This document shows, piece after piece, positions 4,036-62,223 of a stretch of 64,000 nt of DNA (positions are counted from its first letter, which is position 1; each line of letters starts with the position of its first letter). Origin of the DNA: a phage. Made by a program: the position numbers and the translations under genes. Location: assembly GCA_011911785.1 (NCBI GenBank), contig GCA_011911785.1_4084.1; one strand, 5' to 3'. The notes under the pieces are model-generated. The model saw only the letters and a list, made by a program, of their open reading frames with translations, was not told the origin of the DNA and ran no database searches.

Positions 4036-4263
4036 ATGAAAGTAATTTATGTTCAGGTTGAAAAATATCAAACTGAAGATGGTCGCATTTTTGATTCAGC
4101 TAAACAAGCTGAGCATCATGAACGTATTATTTCTGGTGTTCGTCGCATTTGTCCTAAATGTAACGGAACACAACAAGTTCCCGATGAAGAATTTCGTCGC
4201 TATTATGCATGTCCAGATTGTGATGGTAAAGGATATGTAGAAAAACAAGAGGTATGGAAGTGA
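4036..4263 (+). CDS. small zinc-ribbon protein (DnaJ-type CxxCxGxG repeats)
   Basis: CPKCNGTQ ... CPDCDGKG, two CxxCxGxG elements; RBS 'aagga' upstream. Confidence 0.45.
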   Translation: MKVIYVQVEKYQTEDGRIFDSAKQAEHHERIISGVRRICPKCNGTQQVPDEEFRRYYACPDCDGKGYVEKQEVWK

Positions 4264-4673
4264 AACTATATTGCTTAACAAACATGTACTGTCAGGGTGT
4301 TCAGGCTGGCATTCAGGCATTTCATGCTGGTATTAAACTCGTCAAAGATTATGAAGGTTCAGTATTCAGTACTCTAATCGATGAATGGTATAATGAGCAC
4401 GAAACTATTGTAATTCTCAATGCTGGCAACCAAGATAAATTAACCACTCATTACGAGAATCTATCCAAACAGGGCAAGGTTCCATTTGCTAAATTCAATG
4501 AACCAGGTTTGAACGATACCCTCACTAGTGTAGCAGTACTATGCACTGAAGAAATGATTGATGACATGGCACTGATGCGTACTAACGACCCAATGACTGA
4601 TTTACAGCTATGTCACAAATACGGTCATATGTACGAAACACTAAAAGCTATGAGTACAATGAGGACTATTTGA
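4254..4673 (+). CDS. hypothetical protein
   Basis: 139-aa ORF. Confidence 0.4.
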   Translation: MEVKLYCLTNMYCQGVQAGIQAFHAGIKLVKDYEGSVFSTLIDEWYNEHETIVILNAGNQDKLTTHYENLSKQGKVPFAKFNEPGLNDTLTSVAVLCTEEMIDDMALMRTNDPMTDLQLCHKYGHMYETLKAMSTMRTI

Positions 4674-5869
4674 TGAATTTTCCTGAAAAGATTTTCGTCG
4701 CAAGACGTTTTGTTAGTGGGGATCAGGTTGACGGATATATTATCGACGCAACTAAAATGCACACTAAAGCATTTGAAACCAAGAAAGAACGTGTTGAGTA
4801 CTGGGCAAGAACCAATAATATGCCGTCACTTATACTCGACAATGAACCGAAAAAAGGTTTTGCTATTGTTCAAAAATTGATTCACAGTGGGCGTGATACC
4901 TATTTTGTTTGTCGTCACCCAGAAGGATTTGAGTTCAATATCACCGCAAACAATATGCTGGACTTAATCACACACAATGATATCGTTAATGGTGTATTCC
5001 AAGATGCTATGTTCTTTAATAATAATCTTGAACTCATCAATGGTAATACAAAAACATTTGCTAAGATGCAAGAGAAGCAAGAAAAAGCTGAAGAACGTAA
5101 AAGCGTTGTTGGTGAGTTGAAAGTTGGTGATGGATTCCTTTATAACAAAAAAGAGTACTACTATTGTGGTCGAGTTCATGCTCTTTGTTTGAAGAAAACT
5201 AAAGAATTCTCTTTACCTAACAAAAGTTCTTTCTATCATATGGTGTATTGTATCGCTGATGGTACATATGGTGTATGTGCAAGCCTTGACCGTTACGAAT
5301 TAACACCCAGAGCACTCCATAACGTTAAAACGACAATGGAAGCTGAAATTGTTAAAGCAAATGCGTATTTCAATACGTACCGAATGCGAACTGAGAACGC
5401 ATTAGGTGAATGCAATAGACCAGTACTGATCAGTACTAAATCATTTAAAAGTACTGATATGAAAGTAAAATACACTGAAATCACTAAAGACGTTCTTGTT
5501 AATGGTCGTTTCAATGAAAACGTATTATTCATGACTGAACAGAATGGTCAAAAATATCGTGTATTCTTTGGTATTTCAGATAACAACAGCAGAAATTCCT
5601 ATGGATATTATCGCCATGATTATTCTATAGCGTACAAGGGTGATTTTGAAAAATACTGCGGATACCCAGTGGAAGTTGATGCGAATGGTGTAATGTCAAT
5701 GGATGTTGATATCGATAAACATACATCTTTCAATACATGGCGTGGTTATAATTCACCTTTCTATCCACCGACCAAACGATATAGTAATAATTCATCAGAA
5801 TCTAATAAAAAAACTATGGTTCATATTAGCACTGACTGTCCTATTTTTTATGGAACCTATTATCTATAA
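4673..5869 (+). CDS. hypothetical protein
   Basis: Start moved to in-frame ATG at 4673, which forms an ATGA overlap with the upstream stop; no motif recognised. Confidence 0.45.
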   Translation: MNFPEKIFVARRFVSGDQVDGYIIDATKMHTKAFETKKERVEYWARTNNMPSLILDNEPKKGFAIVQKLIHSGRDTYFVCRHPEGFEFNITANNMLDLITHNDIVNGVFQDAMFFNNNLELINGNTKTFAKMQEKQEKAEERKSVVGELKVGDGFLYNKKEYYYCGRVHALCLKKTKEFSLPNKSSFYHMVYCIADGTYGVCASLDRYELTPRALHNVKTTMEAEIVKANAYFNTYRMRTENALGECNRPVLISTKSFKSTDMKVKYTEITKDVLVNGRFNENVLFMTEQNGQKYRVFFGISDNNSRNSYGYYRHDYSIAYKGDFEKYCGYPVEVDANGVMSMDVDIDKHTSFNTWRGYNSPFYPPTKRYSNNSSESNKKTMVHISTDCPIFYGTYYL

Positions 5870-5878
5870 GGGAATATA

Positions 5879-7297
5879 ATGAGCATTTTAGCAATTCTGG
5901 AACAAATCAAAAAGACTTCAAGTACACTTGGTAAGAAAGCAATCCTTGAAGAAAACAAAAACAATGAAACACTCAAAAAAGTACTGAAATATACGCTAGA
6001 CCCTACTATCGTAAGTGGCTATAAGAAGCTACCAGACGCTGCTGACGTGTATCAACATATGACGTTAGATGAAGCTATTGATAAGCTAGAATGCATCTAT
6101 AAGCGTGGTGTGACGGGTAATACGGGGCGTGATTTCATTGCTTCAGTACTGGGTTCCGTATCTGAAGATGATCAGGAAGTTCTCCGTAAAATGCTCACGA
6201 AGAACCTTGATTGTGGTATTCAGGAAAAGAACTGTAATGATGTATTCGGTAAAGGCTTTATTAAAGATGAACCTTATATGCGTTGTTCATTGATTGACAA
6301 GAAAACTGCTAAGAACATCAACTTCAAAGATTATGGTTATGCCGTTGCTGAAGTTAAGATGGATGGTCAGTACTTGAACCACGTTGTTATCAATGCATCA
6401 TTAACATCCACTTCCCGTAATGGTAAGATTTATGACTTCCTCGGTTGTCGTGATGCTGAAATGGCTGGACTTGCTCATCATATTCAAAGTACAGATGAAC
6501 GTTTCAGTAGTGGTGTAGTCTTTATGGGCGAGGGTTTAGTACTGGATACTGATGGGGAAACTATTCTTCCACGTACAACTGGTAACGGCATCATTCAGAA
6601 AGCAGGTAAAGATACTATCACCCAAAACGAAGCAATGCGTACAGTATTCGTTCTCTGGGATGTAGTGCCATATGATGCTTATTGTGCTGGTATCTGGGAT
6701 GTGAAACGTAAGGAACGTCGCGAGATTCTTGAAGGTGCAATCAATGCATTAGGTAGTGAATTCGTGCGTATGGTTGGATATCGTAAGGTGAAGGATCTCA
6801 AAGAAGCCTTTGCTTACAACTCTGAACTCATGAGTTCAGGTGAAGAAGGTTCAGTACTGAAATGTGAAGATGGTATCTGGAAATCTCATACTTCTCCTAA
6901 GCAGTTGAAAATGAAATTGAAAATGCAACTGGACTTGCGTATTGTTGGTTTCAATGAAGGTGAAGGTAAGCGTAAAGGTATGCTTGGTTCTTTACAACTG
7001 GAAAGTGCTTGTGGTACACTAAAAGTAAGCGTAGGAACAGGCATTAAAGAGAAAGATGCTGAATGGACATTTAAAACCATTTGGGAAAGAATGCAAGAAC
7101 TCATTGGTAAAGTTGTTACAATTGAGTGCAATGACGTAGTATATGATAAGCGTACTGGTGAACCGTCACTATTCTTACCAGTGTTTATTGAATTTAGATT
7201 TGACAAAAACACTTGTGACGATTATACTCGTATCTTAGAAATTCGCGATAGTGCAGTTGAGGTCTTCTCAAACAGTATTATTGAATCACTTGGCTAA
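5879..7297 (+). CDS. lig: ATP-dependent DNA ligase (T4 gp30-like)
   Basis: KxDG adenylation motif (EVKMDGQ), EGLVLD, EGSVLK, DLRIVGF; N-terminus MSILAILEQIKK..AILEENKNNE matches my recollection of T4 DNA ligase. Confidence 0.9.
   Translation: MSILAILEQIKKTSSTLGKKAILEENKNNETLKKVLKYTLDPTIVSGYKKLPDAADVYQHMTLDEAIDKLECIYKRGVTGNTGRDFIASVLGSVSEDDQEVLRKMLTKNLDCGIQEKNCNDVFGKGFIKDEPYMRCSLIDKKTAKNINFKDYGYAVAEVKMDGQYLNHVVINASLTSTSRNGKIYDFLGCRDAEMAGLAHHIQSTDERFSSGVVFMGEGLVLDTDGETILPRTTGNGIIQKAGKDTITQNEAMRTVFVLWDVVPYDAYCAGIWDVKRKERREILEGAINALGSEFVRMVGYRKVKDLKEAFAYNSELMSSGEEGSVLKCEDGIWKSHTSPKQLKMKLKMQLDLRIVGFNEGEGKRKGMLGSLQLESACGTLKVSVGTGIKEKDAEWTFKTIWERMQELIGKVVTIECNDVVYDKRTGEPSLFLPVFIEFRFDKNTCDDYTRILEIRDSAVEVFSNSIIESLG
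6850..6861. repeat. 12-bp palindrome TTCAGTACTGAA
   Basis: Exact 12-mer, inside the ligase CDS; same word at 40883, 42123, 59188 and within 62365..62378. Confidence 0.6.
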
Positions 7298-13048: not shown

Positions 13049-15475
13049 TTAAGCACTGATTGTTACAGTTGCAGTATCAGTTTTATTGCCATTCGCAGTA
13101 GTCACTGTAATGACTACAGTACCTTCTTCTAGAGCAGTTACTAATCCATCATCACTAATAGATACTTTAGTAGGTTCATCTGCACTATAAGTTACTGATT
13201 TGTTAGTTGCGTTAGCTGGAAGAACTTCTGGAACTAGTTGAACTGTTTTAGTACCTGATAGTGAAAGATCAGTGGCTTTAGGTGTTAAACCAACGCTGGA
13301 TACTGGTACTGGAATATTAACAGTTACAGCACATTTTGCAGTTTTTGCACCATCAGTAGTTTTTACAGTGATATCAGCAGTACCGTTTGCAACAGCAGTG
13401 ATTAAACCACTTGCACTAACAGTTGCGACACCAGCAGCAGAAGTACTATAAGTTACTGCTTTGTTAGTTGCATTAGCTGGTAGTACAGTTGGTGTTAGTT
13501 GTTGAGTTGCACCAACAGATGTTAAAGTTGCTGTTGTTGGAGAAACAGAAACACTAGCTACAGGAACTGGGATTGACACAGTAATGACACCTTGACCTGT
13601 TTTACCACTTCCATCAGCGGCAGTTGCGATAATGTTTGCAGTACCGTTAGTTAACGCAGTTACAACACCAGTACTAGCATCAACTTTCGCTACAGCAGGT
13701 GCACTAGAAGACCATGTTACAGCTTTATTAGTTGCGTTAGCTGGAAGAACTTCAGCAGCCATTGCTTGAGTTGCGTTAACAGCAGTCAATGTTTTAGTTG
13801 CTGGTGTAACATTAATAGTTGTTACTGGAACTGGAATTGCTACAGTTACTGCACAAACCGCAGTTTTTGCACCATCAGCGGTTGTTACGGTGATGTTAGC
13901 AGTGCCATTTGCTACAGCAGTTATCAATCCTGAAGTGCTAACAGTTGCTACACCCGCATTAGAAGTACTATAAGTTACTGCTTTATTGGTTGCATTAGTT
14001 GGTGCAACCGATGGTGTTAGTTGTTGTGTTGCACCAACAGATTTTAAAGTTGCTGTTGTTGGAGAAACAGAAACACCAGTTACTGGTACTGGAATATTAA
14101 CAGTTACAGCACAAACTTTACTAAAGCCACCATCAGCAGTAGTAGCCGTGATATTAGCAGTGCCATTCGCTACCGCAGTGATTAAACCACTTGTACTAAC
14201 GGTTGCAACACCAGCAGCAGAAGTTGCGTATGTTACTGCTTTGTTACGAGCATTAGCTGGTAGAACAGTTGCAGTTAATTGCTGTGTTGCACCAACAGAA
14301 GTTAATGAAGCGGTTGCAGGTGTTAGGTTAATACCAGTTACTGGGATCGTCACATCAATAATTGATTGTGCGGTTTTTTCACCATCAATAGTTGTTACGG
14401 TAATAGTGGCAGTACCATTATTAACAGAAGTTACTAAACCGTCATCATCAACTTCTGCTACTGTAGGTGCAGAAGATTCATAACGAACTTCCTGATTTGA
14501 TGCAGTTCTTGGTAGTACCGTTGCTGTTAATGGTTCATTTGCACCAATAGTAGTGAATGTATATGTTTCAGGTGTTAACGTAACACCAGTTACTGCTGTT
14601 TGAACTTTAATAGAAGAAGTATCAGTAAATGAACCATCTTCAGATGTTGCAGTAATAGTAACATCACCATTGGATACACCTGTTACCAACCCAGAATCTT
14701 TATCAACTGTTGCAACGGATGGAGCAGATGAAGTCCATGTAACTTTCTTGTCTGTTGCTGAGGCCGGAGTAACTTCAGCTAACAATTGTTGAGTTGCCCC
14801 AACGTTTACAGTTGCAGTTTTAGGAGAAACGGTAACACCAGTAACACCAGTACTGACAACGATAGAACACACATCTGTGAAATCACCATCGTGAGTTGTT
14901 ACGGTTACATCAGCATTGCCATTTGCAAGTGCAGTTGCTAGACCTGTTTGAGCATCAACTTCAACGATTGTAGGAGCAGATGAAGAGTAGGTTACGGTCT
15001 TGTCTTTTGCATTAGATGGAACTACTTGGGCTGATAGTTGTTTTGTTGCACCAACTTTAAGAGATGCATCTTTGGGTGTAATTACAACACCAGTTACGGG
15101 GATATCAGCATTAACATAATCGCGTTTTACGATACGACCATTATTTAATTTAATAACACGACCCATATAAAGCATAGTATATCCCATACTAATACCATCA
15201 TCAACATAGATCATGAATGAATTGTCTTGAACCATATTAATTGCGTCTGCTGGCTCAACAGAATTTGGAATGTCGATACCACGAGTATCATACCAACGCA
15301 TGGAAACTTTGTAATAGATATCACCATTATCATTGATGAGATCATACACGTTACCGGAACGTTGACGGTTAATATATAAAGTTTCGGTTAACACCTTACC
15401 ATCGATTTTAGCGACAGAAACTTTAATACCACCAATACCAAAAGGCAATTTACCTTCACTAGATATTGCTTTCAT
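13049..15475 (-). CDS. Ig-like (Big_2-type) repeat virion-surface protein, putative adhesin or decoration protein
   Basis: 808 aa; shared N-terminal module then about 8 tandem ~85-aa repeats of Big_2 character (VTGVxVSP..ATQQL..V.P.NAT.K.VTY.SS...VATV...GL.TAV..G.A.IT). Confidence 0.6.
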   Translation of the reverse strand: MKAISSEGKLPFGIGGIKVSVAKIDGKVLTETLYINRQRSGNVYDLINDNGDIYYKVSMRWYDTRGIDIPNSVEPADAINMVQDNSFMIYVDDGISMGYTMLYMGRVIKLNNGRIVKRDYVNADIPVTGVVITPKDASLKVGATKQLSAQVVPSNAKDKTVTYSSSAPTIVEVDAQTGLATALANGNADVTVTTHDGDFTDVCSIVVSTGVTGVTVSPKTATVNVGATQQLLAEVTPASATDKKVTWTSSAPSVATVDKDSGLVTGVSNGDVTITATSEDGSFTDTSSIKVQTAVTGVTLTPETYTFTTIGANEPLTATVLPRTASNQEVRYESSAPTVAEVDDDGLVTSVNNGTATITVTTIDGEKTAQSIIDVTIPVTGINLTPATASLTSVGATQQLTATVLPANARNKAVTYATSAAGVATVSTSGLITAVANGTANITATTADGGFSKVCAVTVNIPVPVTGVSVSPTTATLKSVGATQQLTPSVAPTNATNKAVTYSTSNAGVATVSTSGLITAVANGTANITVTTADGAKTAVCAVTVAIPVPVTTINVTPATKTLTAVNATQAMAAEVLPANATNKAVTWSSSAPAVAKVDASTGVVTALTNGTANIIATAADGSGKTGQGVITVSIPVPVASVSVSPTTATLTSVGATQQLTPTVLPANATNKAVTYSTSAAGVATVSASGLITAVANGTADITVKTTDGAKTAKCAVTVNIPVPVSSVGLTPKATDLSLSGTKTVQLVPEVLPANATNKSVTYSADEPTKVSISDDGLVTALEEGTVVITVTTANGNKTDTATVTISA
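13250..14330. repeat. intragenic tandem DNA repeats (~250 bp units) encoding near-identical Ig-like domains
   Basis: Identical 31-mer ctggtactggaatattaacagttacagcaca at 13313..13343 and 14084..14114; flanking sequence also closely similar. Confidence 0.6.
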
Positions 15476-54236: not shown

Positions 54237-54848
54237 ATGTCTAAATATCATGTTTATTATGTAACCAAATTGAGTTTACTAGATGAACTCAATCATACTA
54301 GTACCAAAATGAAACGTTATACTTATAATGGTATTACTTTCAGATACTTTCCACAAAAAGTACTAACATTCGTTAAGAATTGTAAGTGCGTTGCTTGTGG
54401 CATCGAGGCTACAGAAGTTCGAATCGAACGTTCCAACTGTAGTGATCCGGTATATGGTAAACCGCATTTAAATGTGTATGCAGTATGTGGTCTTTATGAA
54501 GTTATGATGACTGTAGATCATAATCATCTTGCATCTAAAGGTGGTGCTGATTTGGAGTCAAACTTTAATACAATGTGTGCGAGATGTAATCAGTTGCGTT
54601 CAAATAAAACTGAAACGGTTGATGAATTCCTTGAGAAAGTCAAAAACCGAAATCTACTTGAAGAACATATGAATCGTTATTTCAATAAGATTGAGAAGGA
54701 AAGTAAACGTCCTACACCAGAAATGCTCGAAGAACGTAGATTGCGTCAAGAGCTATGGGATAACGATCATCTGTGGCATGTTCGTGAGTACGGGCGACAC
54801 ATGAAAGCATTAAAAAAGGCACAAAAGCTGTTGGATAAACATGAGTAA
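54237..54848 (+). CDS. HNH homing endonuclease
   Basis: HNH core VDHNHLASKGGADLESNFNTMCARCNQLRSN with upstream Cys pairs. Confidence 0.7.
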   Translation: MSKYHVYYVTKLSLLDELNHTSTKMKRYTYNGITFRYFPQKVLTFVKNCKCVACGIEATEVRIERSNCSDPVYGKPHLNVYAVCGLYEVMMTVDHNHLASKGGADLESNFNTMCARCNQLRSNKTETVDEFLEKVKNRNLLEEHMNRYFNKIEKESKRPTPEMLEERRLRQELWDNDHLWHVREYGRHMKALKKAQKLLDKHE

Positions 54849-55258: not shown

Positions 55259-55656
55259 TGCTTAAAGATTTAGATTTTTCAAACTTAGAAATTGTTAGTG
55301 CTGTGAAAAATATCTCTGACATGGGAGACGAAAAGACAGTACTGTTAACTATTACATTTGTCAAAGAAGAAGATAGTTATTTACATCTTACAGGTATTGA
55401 AGAACTAATTCATAAAACTAATCTACAAGATAATGGGAAGTTTATTAAGCTTCAGGCTTCCTATACGAAAAAAACGTCAAATTTTGTAGACCTAAATAGT
55501 GTAGTCAAGGTGGTATTCAATCACCCTGAACAAAAGTACAGAAATGTGTCACGTAATGAGACAGATGCCAGTACTCTACAGCTTCTTCAGGATATTGAGT
55601 TCATTGAAACAGTATTTGAACGAAGCAGCAAAGAATTGAAAAAAGTTTATATGTAA
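55258..55656 (+). CDS. hypothetical protein
   Basis: Start set to ATG 55258 (TAATG overlap); the track start at 55243 is a GTG. Confidence 0.4.
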   Translation: MLKDLDFSNLEIVSAVKNISDMGDEKTVLLTITFVKEEDSYLHLTGIEELIHKTNLQDNGKFIKLQASYTKKTSNFVDLNSVVKVVFNHPEQKYRNVSRNETDASTLQLLQDIEFIETVFERSSKELKKVYM

Positions 55657-55657
55657 T

Positions 55658-55686
55658 TGGGACAATACTTTATATTGTGCTATAAT
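55658..55686 (+). promoter_or_regulatory. candidate promoter with extended -10 (TGcTATAAT)
   Basis: tgctataat at 55678..55686 with a weak -35 (TGGGAC); points into the ORF-free region. Confidence 0.35.
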
Positions 55687-56232
55687 TATATTGTAATGGA
55701 AAATGTCAGTGGACGTTTTAACAACGGACAAGAAGAACCTACTTCTCTTGAAAATGTAAAGGATAGATGAGCCTTCCCACTGAGGCGATGAGCAAAAGAA
55801 ACCCGTTAGTACCATCCAAGTGCATTCATACAAACGCGAAATAAGACACGGATCACACGGCGACACGGCTCAATAAAGAACTCCGATAAGCATACAGAGA
55901 GTTCCTCGATAGATGTATAAGGATCGCACCTTACCAGATTTGCTAAGGGAGTTTTACTTAAAACCAGCGGTCAATTTTTCTACGGGAAAGTTGCACCCAA
56001 AATTTGAGTAAAACGAGTACTGAATTGATCGAATAGTTCCAGTACTTTAGTGCAGGGGATGAAAATACCTGCGACCGTTGCATATGACTGCGATAGAGAG
56101 AAACAGAGCAACCCGCTTTCGTTCTCCAAAAATTGGACACCCTTGATCCGTCCAAAATATGGAGAAATTCGCAATTCGATAAATTCCGATGCCATCAGCG
56201 TCAAAATCAAGAACCTTCATTGGTTCTTTTTT
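55687..56232 (+). ncRNA. candidate non-coding RNA locus (ORF-free, GC-elevated, highly structured)
   Basis: About 0.7 kb without a credible ORF on either strand, visibly more GC-rich than flanks, with multiple stem-loops and a repeated gggatgaaaat word; bracketed by a promoter-like element and a terminator at 56210..56232. Confidence 0.25.
56210..56232 (+). terminator. rho-independent terminator
   Basis: Hairpin agaacc-ttcatt-ggttct followed by ttttt. Confidence 0.5.
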
Positions 56233-56376
56233 AATATCATTCCCCTGCGGGGGGATGAAAATGTCCTCAACAAATCCCGTCAATCTTTAAAAGTACAATA
56301 TAATATTAATTAACATGAATGAGTGAGTTATCGTAGATAACGAAACGAATTCTTGAGTTACGAGAGAACGAAGTGA

Positions 56377-56793
56377 ATGAGTAACGCAACGAATATTAAA
56401 AATTCATCTGATTTAACCAAAGAATTGTTTAAAAAGTTTTTTGAGTATCAAATCAATGAAGAGCACGGAATTAAACAGAATTACATAAGTACAATAAAAA
56501 CCAATAATATCCGTACTGAAATCTATGATAGTGTAATCGAATTTATTAATGCTTTGAGTACTGAAAGACCTATAGTAGTTTTGTTTTTTAAACGAGATTA
56601 TCCAGTACAAGTCAACAGGAATGTTCATTTCATTACAGAAAATGATTTAAGTACTTACACAACGAGTTCTATTAGGAATTGTATACTGATAGTATGTGAT
56701 GACTCCGAGTATTTTAGTAAAGTTGTATGGGATAGAAGACGTAATTCAGTAATAAGAGATATGAATCCCGAATTTACATTTCTGATCAAATAA
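56377..56793 (+). CDS. hypothetical protein
   Basis: 138-aa ORF. Confidence 0.4.
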   Translation: MSNATNIKNSSDLTKELFKKFFEYQINEEHGIKQNYISTIKTNNIRTEIYDSVIEFINALSTERPIVVLFFKRDYPVQVNRNVHFITENDLSTYTTSSIRNCILIVCDDSEYFSKVVWDRRRNSVIRDMNPEFTFLIK

Positions 56794-61242: not shown

Positions 61243-61625
61243 TGAGATGGAAAAAGAGACATACTAAACGATTTACTGAGATCGTCAAAAAGTATTATAA
61301 TTCTAAAGATAGTTTTGCATCTATGTTGTATGAAAGTATTACACCTAGACGTTATCCACAATGCTATGTTAATGTAAGAAACAAAAGTAAGAACCGATAT
61401 ACAGTAGAGTTATATGGGGAAGGTACTACATTTCTTGGGACTCGTATTTCAGTACCTTCTTACCTGTACTCAAGAGTTAAACGCAGTCGTGTTCAGGGTG
61501 TACTAGTCGGATATCAAATGTTGTCCATTGATGAAGTTAATGATAAGCTCACACGAAACTTTTCTTACACAGATTTCGAAATTCATGATATAATCTTAGA
61601 TATCTTATCAGATTTGGGGAATTGA
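61239..61625 (+). CDS. hypothetical protein
   Basis: 128-aa ORF. Confidence 0.4.
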   Translation: MMRWKKRHTKRFTEIVKKYYNSKDSFASMLYESITPRRYPQCYVNVRNKSKNRYTVELYGEGTTFLGTRISVPSYLYSRVKRSRVQGVLVGYQMLSIDEVNDKLTRNFSYTDFEIHDIILDILSDLGN

Positions 61626-61674
61626 CCGTGGTATACGTAGAAGTCTTTATGTTTGATGTTAAAAAAGGAAAAAA

Positions 61675-61809
61675 ATGATGAAAGGATTAAAGAAATTTGG
61701 ATCGGATTTTGTTAAGTGTATTCGCTACACTTATGATGCAAATCCAGAAATGACCGCCATTGTCGGTGTGTTTATTACATTAGTTGTGTTAAGCTTTGTA
61801 GTGGTGTAA
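61675..61809 (+). CDS. small membrane protein (44 aa)
   Basis: Below track threshold; aaggaaaaaa RBS, C-terminal TM helix; ends 4 nt before the next gene. Confidence 0.3.
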   Translation: MMKGLKKFGSDFVKCIRYTYDANPEMTAIVGVFITLVVLSFVVV

Positions 61810-61812
61810 AAT

Positions 61813-62223
61813 ATGATTGAAATGGAAGGAACTCTGGTGTATGATCCAGACCGTGGCACTATGAAAAAGAAGAAGGACTTCTGGTTAGTACTGCAACTTC
61901 CATTACAGTTGGTTAGATACTACCAGTACTTCATCAGAACTGATCTCCACATTGATGTTAAAGACCCACAATGGGGAGCACACGTCAGTATTGTTCGTGG
62001 TGAAGTGCCACCAAATCCAGAGTACTGGAAAAAGTACGATGGTCAAAAAATTAAAATAAAATTCAATCCTGATATTGTTCAAGTGAAAGATAAAAAGAAA
62101 CCAGGCTCGTTCTTTATCATAGAGTTCGATGATGAATTCATTGGACACATTCGCAATGAACTAGGATTACAATCAAAGTACTTACGTTATCACCTCACAG
62201 TAGGGAGAACGTACTACGACTAA
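61813..62223 (+). CDS. 2H-phosphoesterase-like protein (candidate Acb1-like or LigT-like)
   Basis: Two H-x-S/T-x motifs (HVSIV and HLTVG) about 70 residues apart in a 136-aa protein. Confidence 0.45.
   Translation: MIEMEGTLVYDPDRGTMKKKKDFWLVLQLPLQLVRYYQYFIRTDLHIDVKDPQWGAHVSIVRGEVPPNPEYWKKYDGQKIKIKFNPDIVQVKDKKKPGSFFIIEFDDEFIGHIRNELGLQSKYLRYHLTVGRTYYD

Follow-up and report, generated by a model that had tools for sequence, protein, structure and literature searches.

The locus described here occupies positions 55657 to 56376 of a 64,000-nt stretch of phage DNA (contig GCA_011911785.1_4084.1 of assembly GCA_011911785.1; hereafter the window) and almost certainly holds a gene for a structured RNA. 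The surrounding 1.2 kb match Escherichia phage A4 (ON286972.1) at 99.2 to 99.4% identity. A4 is an Asteriusvirus with a genome of 355.5 kb and belongs to the jumbo-phage group 121Q/PBECO4/RaK2; window positions equal A4 positions minus 70021. GC content is 0.41 to 0.44 across 55700-56299 and 0.26 to 0.35 in either flank, as an initial annotation made by eye had noticed, and within the 64-kb window this is the sole stretch of at least 300 nt that is both poor in open reading frames (ORFs) and elevated in GC. The plus strand folds better than its shuffled versions (z = -3.7; 0 of 100 shuffles equally good).

The locus is non-coding. The initial annotation had called it ORF free, which is not literally so, since mechanical ORFs of up to 96 amino acids (aa) are present and GenBank annotates minus-strand coding sequences (CDSs) of 49 to 51 aa inside the element as "hypothetical protein" (121Q_516, and A4_511, of 49 aa, at 55980-56129); in the sense of non-coding the claim stands, as no ORF is conserved. 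The ORFs of the locus are open in just 0 to 7 of 43 homologs, and the minus-strand frames overlapping A4_511 are open in 3 (55958-56155) and 1 (55980-56210) of the 43. Relative to the 121Q ortholog, 9 of 11 insertions and deletions are not multiples of three; substitutions in the homolog comparison show no three-base periodicity at the locus; a Pfam scan of the locus ORFs gave zero matches; and variation tracks base pairing, not codons. Set against this, the small CDSs in GenBank and the ORFs of up to 96 aa leave a decayed or overlooked protein gene, such as the 49-aa minus-strand CDS, with practically no probability, and decay of a former gene, which had been raised as a way to refute the RNA, is excluded by the unconserved ORFs, the absence of codon periodicity and the lack of Pfam matches. 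A4_511 is most likely spurious, and the small "hypothetical protein" CDSs that dozens of GenBank records place over the RNA loci are probably artifacts. Up to six small CDSs are annotated over the RNA loci in other GenBank records.

Copies in jumbo phages and chromosomal islands

A blastn search with the 720-nt interval found matches in 72 phage records, at several places per record, all of them jumbo phages of roughly 310 to 386 kb or partial records of one such phage (phiKp_21). The A4 genome has exactly four copies, at about 65.1, 125.7 (the window copy), 205.6, and 321.0 kb, all on the plus strand and in unannotated gaps; a covariance model of the core recovers these four and no more, and neither blastn nor the covariance model finds a second copy inside the window. 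The A4 paralogs are 60 to 80% identical over a core of about 470 to 600 nt that runs from GAACCU... to ...CCCGUCAAU. Homologs are also present at about 70 metagenome loci and as chromosomal copies in Citrobacter, E. coli, and an Enterobacteriaceae metagenome-assembled genome. IMG/VR, GTDB genomes, and JGI/ENA metagenomes were scanned by pattern, with nhmmer as a filter; of the 82 loci that a first, loose genome pattern gave, nhmmer discarded 80 as chance matches. With these scans the family comes to 63 distinct full-length sequences, 52 of which are less than 95% identical and 44 less than 90% identical.

RaK2/121Q/GAP32/BF-type jumbo phages carry two to five syntenic paralogs per genome. Context A lies after a phage sigma-factor gene (A4 copy A, RaK2), context B upstream of a Dam-methylase block (A4 copy B, Xanthomonas phage XaC1), and context C is that of the window (A4 copy C); in context D the RNA is flanked by genes for endonuclease VII and a baseplate hub and runs toward a convergent gene (A4 copy D, Munch, EJP2, GAP32), and in a fifth context, E, it adjoins an ADP-ribosylglycohydrolase gene (BF, XbC2). 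The recurrence of the same few syntenic contexts across genera indicates that the duplications are old and that each copy has been retained, and the suggestion that the locus might be a random, horizontally acquired fragment does not fit four copies that are syntenic across several phage genera. The downstream genes differ among the five phage contexts, and at D-type copies the next gene is convergent.

HNH genes recur near the RNA copies. One lies in the window at 54237-54848 (plus strand) and two others in A4 at 61568-61945 and 63881-64189, so that all three HNH-annotated CDSs of A4 are at most 3.6 kb upstream of copy B or C (annotation read for the genome except 70.5-122.4 and 129.6-134.0 kb). 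In one metagenome phage a gene with NUMOD4 and HNH_3 domains is inserted directly after the RNA (locus L131, 3464-3973), and A-type copies are followed downstream by an HNH-like ORF of cluster 6. These recurrent neighbors suggest that the RNA genes serve as targets of homing or as hot spots.

In two GTDB genomes and about 10 metagenome contigs the RNA occurs in a separate, recurrent context, that of small integrative islands of Enterobacteriaceae. Island loci are L080 1845-5730; L058 6385-7830; L132, L136, L153, L184, and L205; and, in E. coli EEC_W5, L214 4753-15303. The first gene of an island encodes an integrase, which is a tyrosine integrase in some and otherwise a large serine recombinase; the RNA always lies close to this gene and is transcribed away from it. 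There follow a convergent gene for a cI-like repressor with an S24 peptidase domain, a gene for a Ner-like helix-turn-helix protein, variable cargo, and a small resolvase/invertase. The cargo is in some cases a membrane protein together with one of the LprI family; the domain identities of the island proteins are Pfam assignments. Insertion sites vary (by ppdD-hofB, by thiM, and by ffs), and an ffs-adjoining island with different cargo is present in 2 of 5426 complete E. coli genomes. A plasmid search found the RNA on none. The islands have no recognizable replication, packaging, or structural genes, and a Pfam scan of the conserved island proteins, with the remaining island ORFs outside its scope, found no replication protein. 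The island RNAs are nearest to the B-type phage copies, and they share with the B-type copies of some jumbo phages the sequence of one long-range pairing, Pk2 (loop UUCAUGU/ACAUGA; see below). The RNA is the only element common to phages and islands; since no protein gene accompanies it in both, a partner, if there is one, should come from the host or be the RNA itself.

Transcription signals and structure of the RNA

The conserved RNA core extends over about 590 nt, from 55693 to 56285 on the plus strand, in alignments of paralogs and orthologs; we infer its start about 7 nt past the -10 element and take the last invariant block, CAAAUCCCGUCAAU, as its end. Ahead of it lies a sigma-70-type promoter (55657-55686, plus strand; 10 of 12 matches, TG present), made up of the extended -10 element TGCTATAAT at 55678-55686, which had been spotted initially, and a -35-like TTGGGACA at 55657-55664, with a spacer of 16 to 18 nt. 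A TAYAMT -10 element, set about equally far from the first conserved helix, precedes every one of the 44 homologs with enough upstream flank; the extended TG accompanies it in 32 of them, and a -35-like TGRRAY or TTGAC in 33. The -35 region of these promoters reads TGGGACA or TGGAACA, not TTGACA, and is conserved from phages to islands; instead of an ordinary -35, it may represent a promoter element particular to the family.

Covariation was tested on the 44 sequences that are less than 90% identical. The structure model has 99 pairs in 22 helices and was obtained from an all-against-all scan of column pairs for stacked covarying helices, followed by manual curation; this procedure was used instead of RNAalifold, which gave spurious long-range pairs on a trimmed 52-sequence alignment. 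With 19 sequences, RNAalifold found compensatory changes in 45 of 79 pairs. By an independent count on this alignment of 44 sequences, 91.6% of the cells of the 99-pair model are paired, compared with 74.2% after shuffling and 38 to 43% when the 3' partner is slid by 1 to 3 columns; the covariation score is 0.482, versus 0.182 shuffled and at most 0.126 slid, and 0 of 500 shuffles reach the observed values. Changes on both sides (double changes) occur in 75 of the 99 pairs. The comparative alignment that the initial annotation had called for thus bears out its idea of a structured non-coding RNA, in the form of a multicopy family with extensive compensatory changes. Five helices of the model are long-range or pseudoknotted: Pk1, P7, P9, P17, and Pk2.

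In the 5' domain (55707-55786; Pk1, P2, and P3), helices are 87 to 100% paired, with double changes at 11 of 12 pairs. Pk1 joins CAGU of the leader (55707-10) to ACUG (55779-82) in the loop of hairpin P3 (55771-73/55784-86), and hairpin P2 (55744-49/55759-63) carries the conserved loop GAAAAUGUA. Between 55789 and 55872, P4 (55789-93/55868-72) is arranged around P5 (55803-06/55857-60), both 100% paired; the insert inside P5 (about 55808-55856) is variable, being present or absent across the alignment and long in the window copy. A doubly pseudoknotted region (P7 to P10, 55863-55944) comes next in the covariation model. Its hairpin P8, GAACUC (55878-83) with GAGUUC (55899-904), is one of two stem-loops picked out by eye at the outset; it covaries across homologs, with four or five pair types at all five main pairs. 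P7 pairs ACA (55863-65) with UGU (55914-16), P9 pairs AGC of the P8 loop (55889-91) with GCU (55942-44) upstream of an invariant AAGGGAG, and P10 is a hairpin at 55918-22/55929-33. The stem P12 (55951-53/56012-14), which also appears as an inverted repeat and is 97.7% paired with double changes at 3 of 3 pairs, closes an optional peripheral domain (55951-56014) that some paralogs lack.

The long hairpin P13 (56016-56046) has a 7-nt loop that takes part in Pk2, in which AUCGAAU of the loop (56028-34) pairs with AUUCGAU (56174-80), a strand adjoining P15. Pk2 is 99.7% paired, with double changes at all 7 pairs, and its loops all differ among the A4 paralogs (AUCGAAU, AUUGUAU, UUCAUAU, and AUUGCAU). 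The other stem-loop seen by eye, gcagg-ggatgaaaata-cctgc, is hairpin P14 (56052-56072), which also covaries (100% paired, double changes at 4 of 4 pairs) and holds in its loop the first GGGGAUGAAAAU word. The most conserved part of the core (56073-56173) comprises GACCGU, P17, P16, P15, and P18 and contains the invariant AGAAAC.G....ACCCGC; P17 is an H-type pseudoknot into the loop of P16 (56096-100/56116-20), formed by GUUGC (56077-81) and GCAAC (56108-12) and 99 to 100% paired, while P15 is at 56089-93/56169-73 and P18 at 56123-26/56162-65. Covariance model R1 spans 56048-56206, that is, this part together with P14, the 3' strand of Pk2, and P19. Hairpin P19 (56188-56202; GAUGC/GCGUC), which includes the first CGUCA motif, is weak, being 73% paired with one-sided changes only; both of its strands are changed in RaK2-type copies. 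The model is weak at P19 and in the outer, poorly aligned half of P13.

The peripheral parts (the P5 insert, the P12 domain, an insert in P18, and the terminator) vary among copies, and the junctions and many unpaired nucleotides are invariant, a pattern typical of RNAs with a defined tertiary fold. Several other readings of conserved segments were rejected. Pairing of the 5' GAUG with CGUC of the 3' tail, proposed by RNAalifold, leaves both the GUUG variants and the CUUC tail of RaK2 uncompensated, and pairing of UAAGGGAG with GACCGUU clashes with the covariation-supported P17. The match that an anti-Shine-Dalgarno role of UAAGGGAG would call for is imperfect, the AUG of a start-stop mini-ORF in the P2 loop is unconserved, and the frame of a peptide beginning at GGGGGGAUGAAA varies among copies.

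Toward the 3' end lies a hairpin with a U-run that resembles an intrinsic terminator (P20, 56209-56232, plus strand), also recognized initially and the sole such site in 1.3 kb. A terminator hairpin with this covarying stem is present in 27 of 44 members and lacking in 17; it is absent from the A and B paralogs of A4 and 121Q. The unit from promoter to terminator proposed in the initial annotation holds up, but the RNA is probably larger than the interval that it implied: an invariant block (56240-56285), which may be part of the mature RNA, lies 3' of the terminator. In the family this near-invariant block reads UUCCCC-loop-GGGGGG-AUGAAAU...CAAAUCYCGUCA; in the window it consists of a C-run/G-run hairpin (P21, 56240-54, UUCCCC-UGC-GGGGGG; GC-only, 95% paired, changes nearly all one-sided), then AUGAAAAU, then a tail with the second CGUCA motif. 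The repeated word that had drawn attention to the locus, GGGGATGAAAAT (12 nt), occurs exactly twice, at 56055-56066 and 56251-56262.

An AT-rich stretch and a downstream module follow (56286-56400, plus strand); membership of this part in the RNA is uncertain. The module has two further hairpins in many copies, with compensations read by eye: GUAC/GUAC, AUAAC/GUUAU, or GUUAC/GUAAC in one and CAUUC/GAAUG, CAAUC/GAUUG, or CAUAC/GUAUG in the other. In the window the module runs over the start codon annotated for the next gene (ATG at 56377), so either the transcript or that start may be misdelimited. One of the hairpin loops is GAAYGAAGUGA, and the other hairpin reads CAUUC-GAA-GAAUG; the module of D-type copies is followed by a terminator that is bidirectional (AAAAAAACCAGC...GCUGGUU). 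The orientation of promoter and terminator favors the plus strand as the transcribed one, as do the excess of G.U over A.C cells (304 versus 62) and the interior pairs of several helices, which are mostly G.U.

Relation to known RNAs and possible functions

No known RNA class was recognized at the locus, in agreement with the first inspection by eye. Rfam 15 (4227 models, including GOLLD, ROOL, OLE, RNase P, transfer-messenger RNA [tmRNA], 6S, group I/II introns, hammerhead, and HEARO) gave zero matches at the gathering score in the whole window; at E <= 10, the interval 55400-56600 had scattered matches only, far below gathering, and at E <= 5, 18 other members had none on the element and no recurring family. 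ARAGORN found no tRNA or tmRNA genes in the window. A full-text literature search found no account of such an RNA in RaK2/121Q-type phages, and the family, with no match among the 4227 Rfam families, appears to be new. The general category has precedents: the RNA is longer than 400 nt, non-coding, rich in covarying helices and pseudoknots, and carried by phages, as are other large ornate phage-borne RNAs, and it resembles GOLLD and ROOL in kind, not by homology.

With GOLLD, ROOL, and OLE it shares a size class of about 500 to 800 nt, many conserved helices and pseudoknots, invariant unpaired nucleotides, carriage by phages and prophages, and an unsolved function. It differs from them in having no sequence or structure match to their Rfam models, in belonging to phages of Enterobacterales rather than to Lactobacillales or rumen/lake taxa, in lying away from tRNA genes with two to five syntenic paralogs per genome, and in having its own sigma-70 promoter and a conserved block past the terminator. 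GOLLD, ROOL, and OLE are RNA-only homo-oligomers held by intermolecular loop contacts (PMC12286853). By analogy, Pk2 could be the kind of loop pairing that is possible within or between molecules. The phi29 pRNA is likewise a phage-encoded structured RNA with a covarying loop-loop pairing and works as an RNA multimer; it is, however, only about 170 nt long, single copy, and tied to the phi29-type packaging motor, whereas A4-type phages have T4-like terminases.

Large lytic phages also provide ORF-less, abundant transcripts of 0.2 to 0.8 kb, namely, the long non-coding RNAs (lncRNAs) of PA5oct and the non-coding RNA of about 800 nt of ICP1 (PMC7318152, PMC7567579), although conserved structure is unreported for those RNAs. 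Four lncRNAs of PA5oct were defined by RNA sequencing (RNA-seq) (PMC7318152), and one of them, ncRNA004, lies between minus-strand genes, like a D-type copy. The 3' end of ncRNA004 (L212 1374-1435) reads UUCCUUCCC-AAAC-GGGGAGGAAAU, a look-alike of the C-run/G-run hairpin and the AUGAAAU block that is not significant (E 0.76).

On balance, and by analogy, we lean toward a trans-acting folded RNA of the GOLLD/ROOL kind, acting alone, as an assembly, or with a host component. The interval 55657-56290 would then be an independent, stand-alone gene for a large non-coding RNA of about 540 to 600 nt, transcribed by the host sigma-70 RNA polymerase from a strong extended -10 promoter. The RNA would fold into a compact multidomain architecture with at least five pseudoknots and long-range helices and would act in trans as an RNA-only assembly, a ribonucleoprotein scaffold, or a ribozyme. 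Such a model would account for the signature of a tertiary fold and for signals that stand alone; it would also explain why D-type copies can face a convergent gene, why the downstream genes are unrelated, and how the RNA could function in chromosomes as well as in phages. The differing or convergent neighbors in the five contexts argue that the RNA is not a leader for one particular gene. Several points weigh against it. The strongest invariant block sits 3' of an intrinsic terminator, which is odd for a simple stand-alone RNA. The count of G.U against A.C cells is biased, because helices were picked under plus-strand pairing rules, and RNAalifold energies fail to separate the two strands. 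We found no RNA-seq data in the literature for a RaK2-like phage carrying the element, and the RNA-seq-defined lncRNAs of the related PA5oct (ncRNA001 to ncRNA004) have no detectable homology to it (nhmmer best E 0.76; covariance model R1 best E 3.9). Action in trans, finally, is argued by exclusion and analogy only.

A role as an RNA-primed replication origin is unlikely in our estimate, yet several features speak for it. The structured transcript would form a persistent RNA-DNA hybrid near the G-run and AT-rich stretch and prime DNA synthesis, four origins would be spread over the 355-kb genome, and an island copy would let a jumbo phage or the host DNA polymerase I amplify the island. The copies near 65, 126, 206, and 321 kb keep a single orientation whatever the orientation of neighboring genes, the promoter is of the host-RNA-polymerase type, and about 45 bp of AT-rich sequence come after the invariant C4-loop-G6 motif; in the islands the proteins are integrase, repressor, and cargo, the RNA is always beside the integrase, and no replication protein is among the conserved proteins scanned with Pfam. 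ColE1 RNA II, of about 550 nt, needs correct folding for priming and uses a G-run, and plasmids with T4 origins replicate upon T4 infection. RNA II and the T4 origins oriF and oriG resemble the new RNA in the combination of a host-polymerase promoter, a structured transcript of about 550 nt, and a G-run with AT-rich DNA near the 3' end; T4 has several origins, as there are several dispersed copies here, and RNA II, too, is carried by elements without a recognizable replication gene. Against an origin, the intrinsic terminator stands ahead of the G-run in 27 of 44 members (absent in 17), so that most primer transcripts would abort, and the invariant unpaired nucleotides and five pseudoknots form a tertiary-structure signature far richer than in those systems and far beyond the needs of an R-loop. 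T4-type origins require no structured RNA, blastn finds only two places in RaK2, and no antisense unit like the RNA I of ColE1 was found at the new RNA. We regard as still less probable a cis-acting leader, in which the folded RNA would control read-through of its own terminator, in the manner of a riboswitch or a put-like antiterminator, and hence the downstream early genes, or, in the islands, antisense transcription into the convergent cI-like repressor gene. The order of promoter, folded RNA, and intrinsic terminator is that of HK022 put RNA and riboswitch-terminator leaders, same-strand genes follow in contexts A, B, C, and E, and the island RNA is transcribed toward the cI-like gene; moreover, in RaK2-type copies both CGUCA motifs (the P19 3' strand and the 3' tail) become CUUCA along with the P19 5' strand, a concerted change that would allow mutually exclusive pairings. 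But D-type copies, which end at a bidirectional terminator opposite a convergent gene, leave a leader no ORF to regulate; the genes downstream bear no relation to one another from one context type to the next; 17 of 44 members have no terminator; and neither strand of P20 has a covarying alternative partner in the all-against-all helix scan, which thus revealed no covarying antiterminator. Known put RNAs and riboswitch aptamers are also 5 to 8 times smaller than the new RNA.

Lower again we place a role in phage-host or island-phage conflict, in which the hairpin UUCCCC-loop-GGGGGGAUGAAAU would mimic a type I-E CRISPR repeat, as a solitary unit or RNA anti-CRISPR, or the RNA more broadly would be a decoy, such as an island copy interfering with the copies of the phage. 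Sub-threshold matches to Rfam CRISPR-DR models at 56226-56262 point that way, as do flanks of the plus-strand motif that partly resemble what we take to be the E. coli I-E repeat, GUUCCCCGCGCCAGCGGGGAUAAACCG, the Pk2 loop common to island RNAs and B-type copies of some jumbo phages, and an island cargo as variable as that of defense islands. Yet those matches are far below gathering (E 0.9 to 2.8) and on the minus strand, with no model matching the plus strand; the motif is invariant in phages whose hosts have differing CRISPR types, and also in Xanthomonas phage records; it is embedded in a 550-nt RNA with other parts equally conserved; and it recurs in chromosomal islands of the hosts themselves. 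Very improbable, in our judgment, is a mobile ribozyme, whether a remnant or active: an ORF-less group I/II intron, a self-cleaving element, or a repeat like a miniature inverted-repeat transposable element. The copies are multiple and intergenic, HNH homing-endonuclease genes recur beside them, short inverted repeats flank the window copy, and a GAUGAG-hairpin-CGAA segment superficially recalls a hammerhead core. The flanking repeats, however, are AT-rich promoter sequence, each copy has its own conserved promoter, and copies that are syntenic across genera and strongly diverged indicate old duplication, not recent spread. A group I intron is rejected, as the copies are intergenic, without flanking exons and with no Intron_gpI match, and the window copy and 18 other members have no match to any Rfam intron or ribozyme model; the intron or homing-endonuclease remnant considered in the initial annotation is accordingly unlikely. 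In hammerhead ribozymes the invariant core CUGANGA ... GAAA surrounds a three-way junction; the segment here has A at U4, many members have GUUGAG, which turns A6 into U, and no Rfam model matches it.

Beyond the trans-acting RNA that we favor, a bolder proposal seems to us possible, though it is offered tentatively. The RNA would represent a new class of large functional RNA, whether as a ribozyme, as an RNA-only particle that assembles itself, or as the primer RNA at a phage origin of a new type; several paralogs of it would be needed by jumbo phages, and minimal islands of integrase, RNA, repressor, and variable cargo would have captured it to parasitize or block them. If so, the islands would be the first RNA-based satellites or antagonists of jumbo phages. 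To our knowledge, only about a dozen classes of large, highly structured bacterial or phage RNAs are known, and those whose function we know to be solved are nearly all ribozymes or cores of ribonucleoproteins (the ribosome, RNase P, tmRNA, the signal recognition particle, and self-splicing introns). OLE, GOLLD, ROOL, and raiA are unsolved and under active study. The family adds an RNA of about 550 nt with five pseudoknots in the tractable E. coli phages A4, 121Q, PBECO4, and phAPEC6, for which genetics, probing, and cryo-electron microscopy are feasible; four ancient paralogs per genome and sharing with small chromosomal islands are unusual traits.

Other features of the A4 genome and the window

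Three further observations concern regions apart from the RNA. A4 has 2 kb without an annotated CDS amid very small genes at 4139-6138, outside the window, where the covariance model of the RNA core has no match. Its large terminase subunit, also outside the window, is annotated as two CDSs about 275 nt apart (230273-230971 and 231247-232584), an arrangement that an intron, a frameshift, or splitting of the gene could explain. Inside the window, a 258-nt unit is repeated in tandem 3.9 times at 13301-14305 (67% matches), presumably as repeated domains within a large structural gene.

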